A stretch of DNA of 64,000 bases, from the NCBI GenBank assembly GCA_963726255.1, contig CAVSBL010000002.1, positions 2,240,001 through 2,304,000 on the forward strand. The letters run 5' to 3'. Under the pieces are notes generated by a model. The model did not search any database. It saw only the letters and a list, made by a program, of their open reading frames with translations, and was not told where the DNA came from. This DNA comes from Candidatus Bathyarchaeota archaeon. GTDB taxonomy: Archaea; Thermoproteota; Bathyarchaeia; 40CM-2-53-6. The first letter of the stretch is position 1. Each line of letters opens with the position of its first letter. Position numbers and translations under genes: made by a program. Positions 60,394 to 63,290 of the stretch are shown piece after piece.

Positions 60394-61044
60394 ATGGGCG
60401 ACGAGAAGTTCGAAATCGACCTCGGGAATCTTCTCTCAAGGCTCCTCCCCGACGAGAAAGACTCGGCTTTCAAGAAGTTGGACGCTGTCAAAGCGAAGCT
60501 TGTGGAGATGCACGACCGGAATCTAGTGAAGATCAATCATTCGGCTATGGAGGTTATCTGTGCTAAGGATTTGATTTTGAGGGGCTATGAGGTCGATGTT
60601 GAGCACGGCTTAGAAGAAGCGCTTGTCTGCGACCTGCTGGGAACCAAGGGCGGCGGAAGGGCCATAATTGAAATCGAGACGGGTTTCGTCCCCCCAGAGC
60701 ACGCATTGGATCCCACAGCCTTTTGCTCAGCTAGAATTGCCAGCAAGATAGCTCGGTACAGTAGATTCGCGGACAAATTCAGCTTAGCTTCACCCCTCTA
60801 CCAAGTCCTGCCAATTCCTTCACTCTTCCTGAAACCGCCGCGAGTGAGAGAGCAAGCGGAGCTGTTGGAAATGAAGACGCTGTGCGATCGCTACTACGAT
60901 AATCCACCCATAGTCCTGAAGGCGATAGCTACCGGTAGACTTCACTCGCTCTTCTTCATTGATGTGGACAGCGGGACACTGAGAGAGGTGGACCCTGAAA
61001 CTTATTCTGAGTCACTGAGTACGTGGGATAAGTTGAGAAGGTAA
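60394..61044 (+). CDS. Conserved archaeal protein with PD-(D/E)XK-like fold
   Basis: VKINHSAME, VEH..LVCDL...IIEIETGFVPPEHALDP, SKIARYS. Confidence 0.7.
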   Translation: MGDEKFEIDLGNLLSRLLPDEKDSAFKKLDAVKAKLVEMHDRNLVKINHSAMEVICAKDLILRGYEVDVEHGLEEALVCDLLGTKGGGRAIIEIETGFVPPEHALDPTAFCSARIASKIARYSRFADKFSLASPLYQVLPIPSLFLKPPRVREQAELLEMKTLCDRYYDNPPIVLKAIATGRLHSLFFIDVDSGTLREVDPETYSESLSTWDKLRR

Positions 61045-61045
61045 T

Positions 61046-61274
61046 TGCTGCCCAACTTTCGAGGCAGATGTGGCTTTCCCTTCGCGAGGGACTTTCGACC
61101 TTTCCCTCATCCAACGCCTTGGTTTTCCCTCACTCGGGCATCACGGAGTTTCTGCGGTTTCCCGCTAGCGTCGTAGCGCTACGCCCGAGCGCTCATCGAT
61201 CCACATAACGACCCAAGGCAAACCCTGGGACGGAAGCCGACCGACGAATCTACCCCTGTCTCGGTTGAGCAGCA
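61046..61274 (-). ncRNA. Candidate structured ncRNA of unrecognised family
   Basis: Eight fully nested helical segments spanning 229 nt, paired termini, GAAA tetraloop and A-rich loops on the minus strand, no long ORF; strand not certain. Confidence 0.5.
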
Positions 61275-61424
61275 GACTATGATTGTCGTTGCAGAGATAT
61301 GGGGATTGTGGTTGAGCCCCAAACATCAGGTGTGATTTCCAGTGGAATGGAACATAGCTGGGTCCACCGACTCGCTACCTTCAAAAAACCAAAGCATGAC
61401 GACTCAATCAGGATGAATCAACCT

Positions 61425-61664
61425 ATGTCTAGTTCAAACCCTCACCATTGCACGAAAAGTTCTCTCACGATGGAATTCTCATGAGCAAGGTTGCAATGGC
61501 TAGGCTTCAAGAGGTCTTACCTCATTGACGTTGGAAAAGTCTCCTGCAAGAAATGCGGACGAATATTTTCTATCGAAGAACACACTGTTCAGAAAGCCTT
61601 GGCGAAAAGAGCAGCTGAGTTCAAAGAAGACCTTCAGGAAATCGCGTTTGAGCGCAAAGGCTAG
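61425..61664 (+). pseudogene. Small Zn-finger-like ORF interrupted by an in-frame TGA
   Basis: MSSSNPHHCTKSSLTMEFS*ARLQWLG...SCKKCGRIF...; TGA at 61482-61484. Confidence 0.35.
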
Positions 61665-61701
61665 GGTCCGACGGGTATTTGCGGGCTGGCTCTTGGACGG
61701 G

Positions 61702-62724
61702 CTAGACGGATTCCATTAGGCTCGCGACTTTTTCTTCATCAAACACTTGATCTGAAATCTTACGTAACTTCATGGCGAGAGTCGCATCTCGGCCGTTTCC
61801 CAAAGCCCATTTCATATCTGAAGCTACAAACCCACTGTCCCTGAACATTCCTCTCGCGGCAAGTACGAATGGGCATGAGGTTAGGGGGTGGCCTTCTTCA
61901 AGGAGTAGTTTGAGGACGGGGCTGTAACGATAATTCTTGAACCGGAATCTGGCTTCTGAACGTGACAGGTCGATATTGATCTTGTCCGACAACCCTTGGT
62001 TTACATAGAATTCCGCTAGTTTGTTTAGGGATTCTTTGTGTCCTTCGGGAAGTTTCGTGTGGAATTCGTCTCGTAGAAATTCGATGATTCCGTGGCCGAT
62101 GTTATCGAGGAGGAGTTGGGCTTGTGCTCCTAGGTATTCGAAGCCACACGCTAATCCATACTCAACAGTCTCGAACGCAGGTAACCCCACTTTGGTATTC
62201 GAGTAGCCTGTTGGTGGGACTGTGCTAAGGTCTGCGTGCTCCGGTGCAGTGAGAACTGAGTCGGCAGGCGGTACATTCCTGAATCTGAGGCTGTATGTTC
62301 CATCTGGGGACAATCCTTCGGACAGAACTTGTGATCCACGGTGTTCTTCTCTCTCGATTGCTCCCCGTGCGAGGCATAGGGGGCAGGTTAAAAGGAAGCA
62401 ATTCTGGTTCCGGAGTTTCTTCATTAGGCCTATGAATCTCCAACCGTGCATCTTAACGAGGAAAGCCTCTCCGTCAGGTGAGAACTCGACTCCGCTCACG
62501 TAGCCAGTGTCCTTGAAGAAGCGGATAAGTTCGGAAATGGATTGGTATGGGTCTTGTGAGAGCTGTAGGTAATTCAGTTTCACTCCGTAGTCAATGATTC
62601 CAGTCCCGATTCTGTCGAGCATCTCTTGGCCGCGTTCGTGCCCAAGATAGTCGAAGGCTCTTGCTGCTCCGTAAATAACAGAATCCAACACGGCGAGCTG
62701 AATTGATTCCGTTTTTTCCGCCAT
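61702..62724 (-). CDS. Tandem V4R/MetOD1-like two-domain protein
   Basis: Two homologous halves (IYGAARAFDYLG..QEMLDRIGTGIIDY...LTCPL and EYGLACGFEYLG.QAQLLLDNIGHGIIEF...TSCPF). Confidence 0.65.
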   Translation of the reverse strand: MAEKTESIQLAVLDSVIYGAARAFDYLGHERGQEMLDRIGTGIIDYGVKLNYLQLSQDPYQSISELIRFFKDTGYVSGVEFSPDGEAFLVKMHGWRFIGLMKKLRNQNCFLLTCPLCLARGAIEREEHRGSQVLSEGLSPDGTYSLRFRNVPPADSVLTAPEHADLSTVPPTGYSNTKVGLPAFETVEYGLACGFEYLGAQAQLLLDNIGHGIIEFLRDEFHTKLPEGHKESLNKLAEFYVNQGLSDKINIDLSRSEARFRFKNYRYSPVLKLLLEEGHPLTSCPFVLAARGMFRDSGFVASDMKWALGNGRDATLAMKLRKISDQVFDEEKVASLMESV

Positions 62725-63290
62725 TATATTTTCACAACTTTGTCGCAGAAGGGTGCGAGTTGTGATACTACGTCCCGTTCCGCATTCATCTCAACGGTGA
62801 GAAGTGAGCCTGAAGTGTTCCACCTGCGCATCTTCTCCGTCAATAGGTGAGCAAATTTGGCGACGGATTTTGGGTCATTGTATATGAGAAGGGTTGAGAG
62901 GCTGTCCAAGACTAGGAACTTCTCTCCAGTAATCCCGTTAATGGCCTTGGAGATGCCAATGCAGAGGTTACTTAGGTCTACACCCGACCCCAAACAAGCG
63001 TGATCGTTCTCTTCCTGAATTGATGGGACGTTCGTAATCCCGTCTACAAAGAATAATGAGCTGGATGGGATTCCAGCCTTCTCGAACGACTTGGTCAGAA
63101 CGGCGAACGGTTTGTTTAGGCTGACGTAGACCCCCCGGGAAACCTTAGCTGTGAAGTAGCGTAGGAGCTGAAGAACCGCGTCCTGATACTTGATTGGGTC
63201 GATTAGCGCGAGTATTACCGGTCGCTCTAACCCGTCCAAGCTCTCGCCAATACTGACCGAAAGATCAACGGTCAACGGGAAATCTGACAA
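62724..63290 (-). CDS. Inactive KaiC/RecA-like ATPase domain protein
   Basis: GVYVSLNKP, FFVDGIT, LVLDSLSTLLIYN, CDKVVKI; no Walker A; stop overlaps the next start. Confidence 0.75.
   Translation of the reverse strand: MSDFPLTVDLSVSIGESLDGLERPVILALIDPIKYQDAVLQLLRYFTAKVSRGVYVSLNKPFAVLTKSFEKAGIPSSSLFFVDGITNVPSIQEENDHACLGSGVDLSNLCIGISKAINGITGEKFLVLDSLSTLLIYNDPKSVAKFAHLLTEKMRRWNTSGSLLTVEMNAERDVVSQLAPFCDKVVKI

Follow-up and report, generated by a model that had tools for sequence, protein, structure and literature searches.

Introduction

Type III toxin-antitoxin systems such as ToxIN place a nuclease gene beside the gene for a processed structured RNA, and several archaeal RNAs exist as circles, among them circular C/D-box small RNAs (sRNAs) and the permuted, circularised signal recognition particle (SRP) RNA of Thermoproteus. 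Other archaeal circles are flanked by bulge-helix-bulge (BHB) motifs: sections of two publications describe circular pre-16S/23S ribosomal RNA (rRNA), excised transfer RNA (tRNA) introns and a circular 5' untranslated region (UTR) intron of Haloferax (PMC7714728; PMC12918454). The definition of the motif used here comes from PMC7714728, where a ligase is also described as closing the excised pieces into circles. According to the same source, bulges of different lengths are tolerated by the alpha-beta type of splicing endonuclease, which occurs mostly in TACK archaea. Here we describe a locus that resembles these systems in a stretch of 64,000 nucleotides (nt) from Candidatus Bathyarchaeota archaeon (GCA_963726255.1, contig CAVSBL010000002.1, positions 2,240,001-2,304,000), called the window below and used for all coordinates. 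Positions 61047-61273 of its minus strand are the gene of a previously undescribed archaeal structured RNA family, the mature form of which we read as a covalently closed circle of about 200 nt (61058-61257) produced by the BHB route; taken jointly, we give these three statements a probability of about 0.7.

As far as literature searching reaches, four things are new: the family to which the RNA belongs, the way it folds, a stable circular product that stands alone, and the linkage to a protein. The maturation route was already known. No description of this RNA was found in the full texts searched.

A structured RNA gene on the minus strand

The stretch 61046-61274 sits between the stop of an open reading frame (ORF) of 216 amino acids (aa) on the plus strand and about 430 nt without long ORFs. 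A preliminary description, made from the DNA letters alone, had outlined a structured element at these positions, leaning towards the minus strand and starting 1 nt past the stop of a PD-(D/E)XK-like gene. The stop codon indeed ends at 61044, and the conserved structured block is 61047-61273. The leaning towards the minus strand was also borne out. The fold of this strand has a free energy of -106.6 kcal/mol (z -4.45; none of 200 shuffles equal), compared with a z of -2.30 for the plus strand. RNAalifold, run on a seven-sequence alignment, shows invariant G-U pairs that are possible solely on the minus strand, and an A/T-rich box of archaeal promoter type lies on the same strand in 25/25 aligned homologues, ending about 20-25 nt upstream of the terminal stem P1. 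Because of these G-U pairs and of the upstream box, we assign the RNA to the minus strand. The box is weaker in this genome (CATATCTC) and stronger in relatives, where TTTATATC, CTTAAAT or TATAAATA occur at the same distance; a T-rich stretch is often found 3' of the RNA gene among the 25 homologues. Having its own promoter box, the RNA is therefore read as an independently transcribed gene.

We compared the locus with known RNA families. Rfam 15, searched with the whole window in its genomic, unpermuted order, gave no match at gathering thresholds, and the region 60900-61750, searched at expectation (E) values up to 10, gave only five chance-level matches (best 17 bits against a cut-off of 100), none of them to RNase P or SRP RNA. 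Seven related loci likewise gave no Rfam match. RNase P and SRP identities, which the preliminary description had already set aside for lack of their hallmarks, were rejected, as the standard archaeal RNase P RNA (173.6 bits) and SRP RNA (163.6 bits) are both encoded elsewhere in the same genome. The same description had proposed an undescribed archaeal non-coding RNA or ribozyme. The first part agrees with the lack of an Rfam family, the strong covariation, the promoter, the high representation in RNA libraries and the silence of the literature; nothing points to the second, and known self-cleaving ribozymes gave no Rfam match in the region at E values up to 10.

These Rfam searches used the genomic order only, and a circular mature form could have a functional order that differs from the one in the genome. 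A known family in circularly permuted order, as in the SRP RNA of Thermoproteus, might then go unrecognised by linear models. We give this explanation a slim chance. RNase P RNA and SRP RNA are present in standard form elsewhere in the genome, and conserved arms of a permuted family would usually give at least a partial local match, of which there was none at E values up to 10. An RNA family of its own is the reading kept below.

Covariation and fold

A blastn search of 40 relatives returned the RNA in 6, at identities from 99% down to 78%; another family of the order is represented among them. Conservation in the seven-sequence alignment begins and ends exactly at the ends of the terminal stem, and the RNAalifold consensus contains 69 pairs. 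Covariation was evaluated on 25 full-length homologues from Bathyarchaeia and Nitrososphaeria, aligned to a covariance model. Results showed that standard pairs occupy 92.5% of the cells, compared with 34-40% when the partners are slid by 1-3 columns, and that 58 of the 69 consensus pairs carry compensatory changes, the observed score being attained by 0 of 500 shuffles. An alignment fitted to a model favours the structure of that model; the margin is nevertheless very large.

These data allowed the helices drawn in the preliminary description to be revised. Its terminal stem, 61046-56/61264-74, is kept as the 10-base-pair (bp) helix P1 (61047-56/61264-73), paired in 98.4% of cells and with compensatory changes at 9 of its 10 pairs; covariation also keeps the helix 61133-39/61183-89, now 61131-39/61183-91, and supports the GCGG-GAAA-CCGC hairpin at 61154-65. 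The hairpin at 61086-108 was drawn roughly right, with weaker support, and the helix 61060-67/61256-63 survives in its outer 4 bp (61060-63/61260-63), conserved in 25/25 sequences, the remainder not being conserved. The helices 61072-76/61234-38 and 61116-22/61213-19 find no support in covariation and the hairpin 61166-81 is not conserved. A switch had been suggested from the pairing of 61212-18 with 61223-29, which turns out to be the conserved terminal hairpin of arm P3 (61213-18/61223-28), with no evidence of switching there.

When 61058-61257 is folded as a circle, it adopts a four-way junction of P2, P3, P4 and P5 with a minimum free energy of -84.3 kcal/mol (z -4.3 against 200 mononucleotide shuffles). 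In the mature product, four arms, all of them capped, would meet in a closed four-way junction; its internal loops are conserved and rich in purines. In this form the P2 helix comprises 61061-69/61248-56 and competes with a short helix at 61060-63/61260-63, which belongs to the motif described below (Table 1).

Table 1. Features of the RNA locus and of the adjacent protein gene (window coordinates; strand of the feature).
Feature	Position	Strand	Basis or remark
TATA-like promoter box	61294..61301	-	CATATCTC in this genome
P1 5' strand, outer helix h of the BHB motif	61264..61273	-	Covariation; absent from RNA contigs, probably removed from the mature RNA
H 5' strand (CGAG)	61260..61263	-	Pairs with 61060-61063 in 25/25
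5' bulge (ACA; family A/U-N-A)	61257..61259	-	Putative cut 61258/61257
Predicted mature circular RNA, 200 nt	61058..61257	-	RNA contigs with back-joints, covariation, circular fold
P2, predicted to be GAAA-capped once ligated	61248-56/61061-69	-	
P3 arm	61193-61247	-	
P4 arm with GNRA hairpin	61131-61191	-	
P5 arm	61072-61129	-	
H 3' strand (CUCG)	61060..61063	-	In the predicted circle, 61061-63 join P2 and 61060 opens the GNRA loop
3' bulge (AAA; family A-R-N)	61057..61059	-	Putative cut 61058/61057
P1 3' strand, outer helix h	61047..61056	-	Covariation; probably removed from the mature RNA
Gene of the 216-aa protein with predicted PD-(D/E)XK fold	60394..61044	+	Convergent on the RNA gene; stop codon ends at 61044

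A bulge-helix-bulge motif and the proposed maturation

The preliminary description had missed that the terminal stem reads as a BHB processing signal and the mature RNA as a circle. What looks like an internal loop between P1 and P2 (7 nt on the 5' strand, 4 nt on the 3' strand) contains a 4-bp helix rather than a true loop, since the four nucleotides that open its 5' side pair with the final three of the P2 3' strand and with the G that follows them. This central helix, H (alignment columns 14-17/280-283), is paired in 25/25 sequences and in 100% of cells, with compensatory changes at 3 of its 4 pairs; beside the CGAG/CUCG found here, the variants CGAA/UUCG, CAGG/CCUG and CGGG/CCCG occur. Two 3-nt bulges stand on opposite strands at the opposite ends of H and read A/U-N-A and A-R-N in 25/25 sequences, and the whole motif is kept in 8/8 further full-length metagenome copies, that is, in 33/33 in total. 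The loop between P1 and P2 was also considered as a K-turn, a hairpin-ribozyme-like loop or a tRNA-like site for RNase P or Z; the conserved nucleotides fit none of these. Within the genus, H can be extended by four pairs (61064-67/61256-59), an extension that would bury the 5' bulge and is not conserved outside the genus.

In the route that we propose, the ends of the primary transcript would pair as the 10-bp P1 followed by the 4-bp helix with its two flanking 3-nt bulges, the archaeal splicing endonuclease would cut in both bulges, and RtcB would join the ends into a circle. The 3' strand of the 4-bp helix could then pair again and complete P2, the ligated junction becoming a G-A-R-A tetraloop. 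The sequence expected at this junction reads G-A-R-A in 25/25 homologues, a predicted GNRA tetraloop capping P2. The genome contains two EndA matches (80.9 and 53.3 bits) and one RtcB match (571 bits), and the two EndA paralogues suggest an enzyme of the broad-specificity alpha-beta type. We infer, and regard as well supported, that the splicing endonuclease cuts the RNA out and that RtcB closes it.

An ARAGORN intron search of the whole genome called introns in 31 of 35 tRNA predictions, several of them implausibly long and with doubtful boundaries. Together with the two EndA paralogues, these calls suggest heavy use of the splicing endonuclease in this organism.

RNA contigs point to a circular mature form

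Nine metatranscriptome runs from seven studies carry a small share of the sequence words of 60394-61700, and four of them, from four studies, were examined: sediment (X1), soil (X2), peat (X5) and freshwater (X9). In 4/4 runs, RNA contigs cover 61055-61257 only. Depth was zero at 60394-61053, which includes the gene of the 216-aa protein, and at 61274-61700; such empty flanks in the same runs argue against DNA carry-over. The two strands of the terminal stem (61047-56 and 61264-73) occur in no RNA contig. In the peat run, the summed contig depth reached about 15,000.

The contigs also contain back-joints. The joint 61255>61056 was present in soil (depth 62.9) and in peat (depth 3089.9), while the sediment run had 61251>61055 with three letters between and the freshwater run 61257>61059 with one letter between; set against the genome, both of these prove to be that joint, in a relative whose sequence carries substitutions. 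Joint depth and internal depth are of the same order. By these joints, the ends of the RNA fall at 61255-57 and 61056-58, inside the two bulges or just at their borders, which fits cuts two nucleotides into each bulge (61258|61257 and 61058|61057). The simplest reading of the back-joints is a covalently closed RNA of about 200 nt, and the circle appears to be the end product and not an intermediate. No linear form was seen among the contigs, which cannot exclude one.

Several points weigh against the circle and the route proposed for it. The RNA evidence consists of assembled contigs from mixed communities, not of raw reads, and gives neither strand nor exact ends; it comes from RNA runs, and tandem copies of the DNA in relatives could also give such joints. 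The position of the joint is ambiguous by 2 nt because AG is present on both sides. Concerning the motif, the 5' bulge measures 3 nt only if the short inner helix h' forms, a larger drawing being possible, and h' has its first pair in 25/25 sequences and its second in 17/25. The position of the cut inside a canonical bulge is presumed, and both enzymatic steps, cutting by the endonuclease and joining by RtcB, are deduced.

We also considered that the conserved block might be a cis-regulatory element (a riboswitch, a leader or a structure in a 3' UTR) or an intron whose spliced flank is the functional product. The terminal stem closes the RNA as in many aptamers, and in some lineages a same-strand gene immediately precedes the RNA. 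Against this, the promoter box is its own in all the homologues aligned, the next downstream gene is convergent in all three arrangements described below, and conservation stops at the ends of P1. In addition, the abundant species is the excised circle, its flanks being unseen in the RNA contigs, and ARAGORN called no tRNA or transfer-messenger RNA (tmRNA) in the region. We therefore regard a cis-acting element or an intron as having a very small chance, and retain a separate gene with a circular product.

The neighbouring 216-aa protein

The protein encoded next to the RNA has no family in Pfam, NCBIfam or PADLOC, and 2601 homologues at E values up to 0.001. Its 250 cluster representatives at 50% identity are nearly all about 200-240 aa long or fragments, and relatives occur at no fewer than 571 places in a collection with one genome per species. 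AlphaFold2 with a 60-sequence alignment gave a model with a predicted local distance difference test score (pLDDT) of 91 and a predicted template modelling score (pTM) of 0.87. This model was used instead of an earlier one from 18 sequences, which was poor (pLDDT 63) and the Foldseek matches of which, Hjc resolvase (2wiw, 4tkk) among them, were not significant.

The best PDB match of the 60-sequence model in Foldseek was CdiA-CT (4g6v_A, E 5e-4), which we take to be a tRNase, followed by SPO1766, SfsA, AF2093, AF1548, XisH, HindIII and NucS. VIA-align aligned residues ~46-202 with Z scores of 9.2 (3dnx), 8.5 (2okf), 8.2 (1y88), 7.5 (2ph7) and 6.9 (2vld), five structures that presumably all have the PD-(D/E)XK fold; by its title 2vld is a repair endonuclease, and the lower rows include restriction endonucleases and Can2. 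Because of these Foldseek and VIA-align matches, the predicted fold of residues ~46-202 is PD-(D/E)XK, as the preliminary description had supposed. The model adds an N-terminal helical hairpin and a C-terminal CDRYY..PP segment. D80, E93 and E95 are invariant in the 60 sequences and form a motif D...ExE, not ExK; we take them to lie on the strands of the D...(D/E)xK motif of the family. A lysine could come from K85 or K118.

Structure prediction supports a homodimer. The symmetric pair scored an ipSAE of 0.83, compared with 0.00 for the best of 3 controls, the runs agreed in at least 91% of contacts, and the partner pLDDT was at least 90. In calibration, this mark was reached by 20 of 30 proteins solved as one-chain pairs and by 1 of 23 solved as single chains. 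As a dimer is usual for the fold, part of this result may reflect resemblance to solved complexes.

We asked whether this protein could itself process the RNA, that is, whether both cuts could be made by the linked PD-(D/E)XK homodimer, as a dedicated RNA endonuclease acting on P1, loop and P2, with ligation following. The cuts lie on opposite strands with pseudo-two-fold symmetry, in keeping with the predicted symmetric dimer, the best structural match is a toxin of the PD-(D/E)XK fold, and splicing endonucleases share the fold class and appear among the weak structure matches. We nonetheless consider such a dedicated cutter distinctly improbable. No extra enzyme is needed, because the motif fits the known substrate of a splicing endonuclease that the genome encodes; the RNA also occurs unlinked from the protein, and the ends left by metal-dependent PD-(D/E)XK enzymes are not of the kind joined by RtcB. 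We therefore still prefer the splicing endonuclease as the enzyme that makes the cuts.

Distribution of the RNA and its link to the protein

Distribution was assessed with two covariance models, R1 and R2, and with genome searches that scored part of the candidates. With R1, the RNA was found in 8 of 105 genomes of its own order, including a third family. Of 150 sampled genomes of the phylum one carried it besides the source genome (G131, from another order of the class), and 41 Nitrososphaeria genomes gave two strong matches. Loci fetched through the protein showed the RNA in further Nitrososphaeria-type genomes, and RNA-bearing loci are labelled Bathyarchaeia, Nitrososphaerales, Nitrosopumilales and Nitrosocaldus. 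The RNA family spans Bathyarchaeia and ammonia-oxidising archaea, with a patchy distribution. Searched by nhmmer with a profile of 25 sequences, the protein-first loci yielded no additional copies, and the motif ARCCACAT alone is not diagnostic for the RNA.

Two genomes deserve a separate mention. A protein-negative Nitrososphaeria genome (G297) contains a weak, partial match of 23 bits to the RNA model, and in a soil genome of Nitrososphaerales type (G257) the RNA gene lies in ~2.6 kilobases (kb) (L127 1-2665) without any ORF of at least 90 aa and without an Rfam match.

Patchy distribution and circular RNA could both be features of a mobile or viral element, be it a miniature inverted-repeat transposable element (MITE), a viroid-like replicon or the RNA of a provirus. 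The RNA sequence has one match in the 2.42-Mb genome, so that it is not a MITE, and every genome with a match has exactly one. It lies in chromosomal DNA among housekeeping genes, none of 20 pattern matches on viral contigs is the RNA, and no known self-cleaving ribozyme matches it. We consider the chance of a mobile or viral origin practically negligible and keep to a chromosomal RNA gene.

The preliminary description had tied the RNA to the adjacent protein. The link is real but partial. In the order of the source genome, the protein gene is the immediate convergent neighbour of the RNA in 8/8 loci while the other neighbours vary. In Nitrosocaldus-type and related loci, the two genes share a strand, with the RNA 50-110 nt past the protein gene; the RNA gene is thus inverted relative to the protein gene and yet still adjacent. 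Nitrososphaera-type genomes have the RNA 1.3 kb upstream of the protein gene, with a 3-hydroxyacyl-CoA dehydrogenase gene in between. Among 80 loci fetched through the protein, the RNA is complete in 16 and truncated by the edge of the locus in 4. Conversely, 10/10 genomes found through the RNA carry the protein (8 of the own order, G131 and G270), compared with a background of 25/105 genomes of the order and 13/41 in the Nitrososphaeria sample; this count overstates the case because related genomes are not independent.

The direct upstream neighbour of the PD-(D/E)XK gene in Nitrosocaldus-type loci is a Prok-JAB domain gene of the same strand (L031 988-1446, plus strand; similar in L022-L032); a mannosyl-3-phosphoglycerate synthase gene lies divergently in these loci.

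A partnership between the RNA and the protein has to be set against a number of observations that speak for independence. In the order, 17 of 25 protein-positive genomes have no detected RNA. For 12 protein-positive loci of the order lacking the RNA, a search with filters off gave chance-level matches only, and a whole-genome search for the RNA in G031 and four other protein-positive genomes gave nothing credible, while R1 and R2 may miss divergent copies. G131, G257 and G270 have the RNA gene and the protein gene either on separate contigs or at a distance of 296 kb. In a metagenome sample collected through the RNA, 12 of 80 pattern matches are the RNA and the protein is present in 3 of these 12 loci, three others having full 1.8-kb flanks without it. 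Finally, the genes around the RNA are metabolic or housekeeping genes, not defence or mobile ones. All-vs-all blastn of the regions downstream in RNA-negative loci returned blocks resembling neighbouring genes only and no second RNA.

On these grounds, the circular RNA as described might have nothing to do with the 216-aa protein, their adjacency being inherited gene order and the RNA serving another role, for instance as a scaffold for common archaeal RNA-binding proteins. The unlinked genes, the metagenome loci, the many protein-positive genomes without detectable RNA and the housekeeping neighbours agree with independence, to which we give odds not far short of even. Against it, adjacency survives the inversion of the RNA gene and takes three arrangements across Bathyarchaeia and Nitrososphaeria, and the presence of the protein in every RNA-first genome exceeds the background of ~24-32%, the relatedness of these genomes inflating the count. 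We hold, tentatively and at odds also below even, that the circle works with the neighbouring homodimeric protein as a bound RNA subunit, a regulator or a decoy. A four-way junction would mimic the substrate of a junction-binding nuclease, and by analogy a closed RNA four-way junction beside a dimeric enzyme of predicted resolvase-type fold is suggestive. A more specific version, in our opinion rather unlikely, is that the circle is the dedicated RNA partner of a resolvase-like PD-(D/E)XK homodimer, in a new archaeal ribonucleoprotein that would regulate, sequester or direct the nuclease, or that the protein would re-open or remodel the circle.

Other genes around the locus

A 57-aa ORF with a CxxC motif (61491-61664, plus strand) is 81-100% identical in three genomes of the genus and has weak zinc-ribbon and FUR matches below the cut-offs. 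Beyond it, the gene of a 188-aa KaiC-like DUF7504 protein (62724-63290, minus strand) is followed immediately, with an overlap of 1 nt, by a 340-aa ORF (61702-62724, minus strand) for which neither Pfam nor NCBIfam has a family; this pair is shared only with the closest relative.

Discussion

Bathyarchaeia and Nitrososphaeria are among the most abundant archaea of soils, peat, sediments and waters, with few cultured members. Considering its very high contig depth in metatranscriptomes of four habitats, the RNA would add an abundant species to archaeal cell biology. If the proposed route is correct, the splicing-endonuclease and RtcB pathway would make a stand-alone, stable, structured circular end product, in addition to the rRNAs, introns and guide RNAs that it is known to process. 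Being circular in its mature form, such an RNA would be missed or mis-annotated by linear RNA models, and the circle may be mistaken for a viroid-like RNA in metatranscriptome mining. The linkage would also give the widespread family of the 216-aa protein its first testable functional lead.

Compared with known proteins, the 216-aa protein shares its predicted core fold with SPO1766 (3dnx), XisH (2okf), AF1548 (1y88), AF2093 (2ph7), NucS (2vld) and CdiA-CT (4g6v). It differs from these PD-(D/E)XK relatives in having no sequence family, in carrying E and not K at the third motif position, and in its extra N-terminal helical hairpin, its C-terminal CDRYY..PP and its link to a structured RNA gene; we know of no such link for any of the relatives listed. 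As in ToxIN, a gene of nuclease fold stands next to a gene for a processed structured RNA. Unlike in ToxIN, the RNA is not tandemly repeated; it has a promoter of its own and varies in orientation, the protein often occurs without it, the surrounding genes are housekeeping genes and PADLOC finds no match.

The RNA resembles archaeal RNase P and SRP RNAs in being abundant, conserved and multi-helical, with a length of a few hundred nucleotides and GNRA loops, and differs from them in its patchy distribution and in the lack of any sequence or structure match. The closest likeness is with the BHB-flanked circles of archaea: the flank helix comes with two 3-nt bulges that enclose a 4-bp helix, the RNA released by the putative cuts appears circularised, and the genome encodes both a splicing endonuclease and RtcB. 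In contrast to those circles, the new RNA is not an rRNA, an intron, a guide sRNA or an SRP RNA and has no Rfam family; it is a separate gene, about 200 nt long and with a promoter of its own, whose product folds into a conserved four-way junction.

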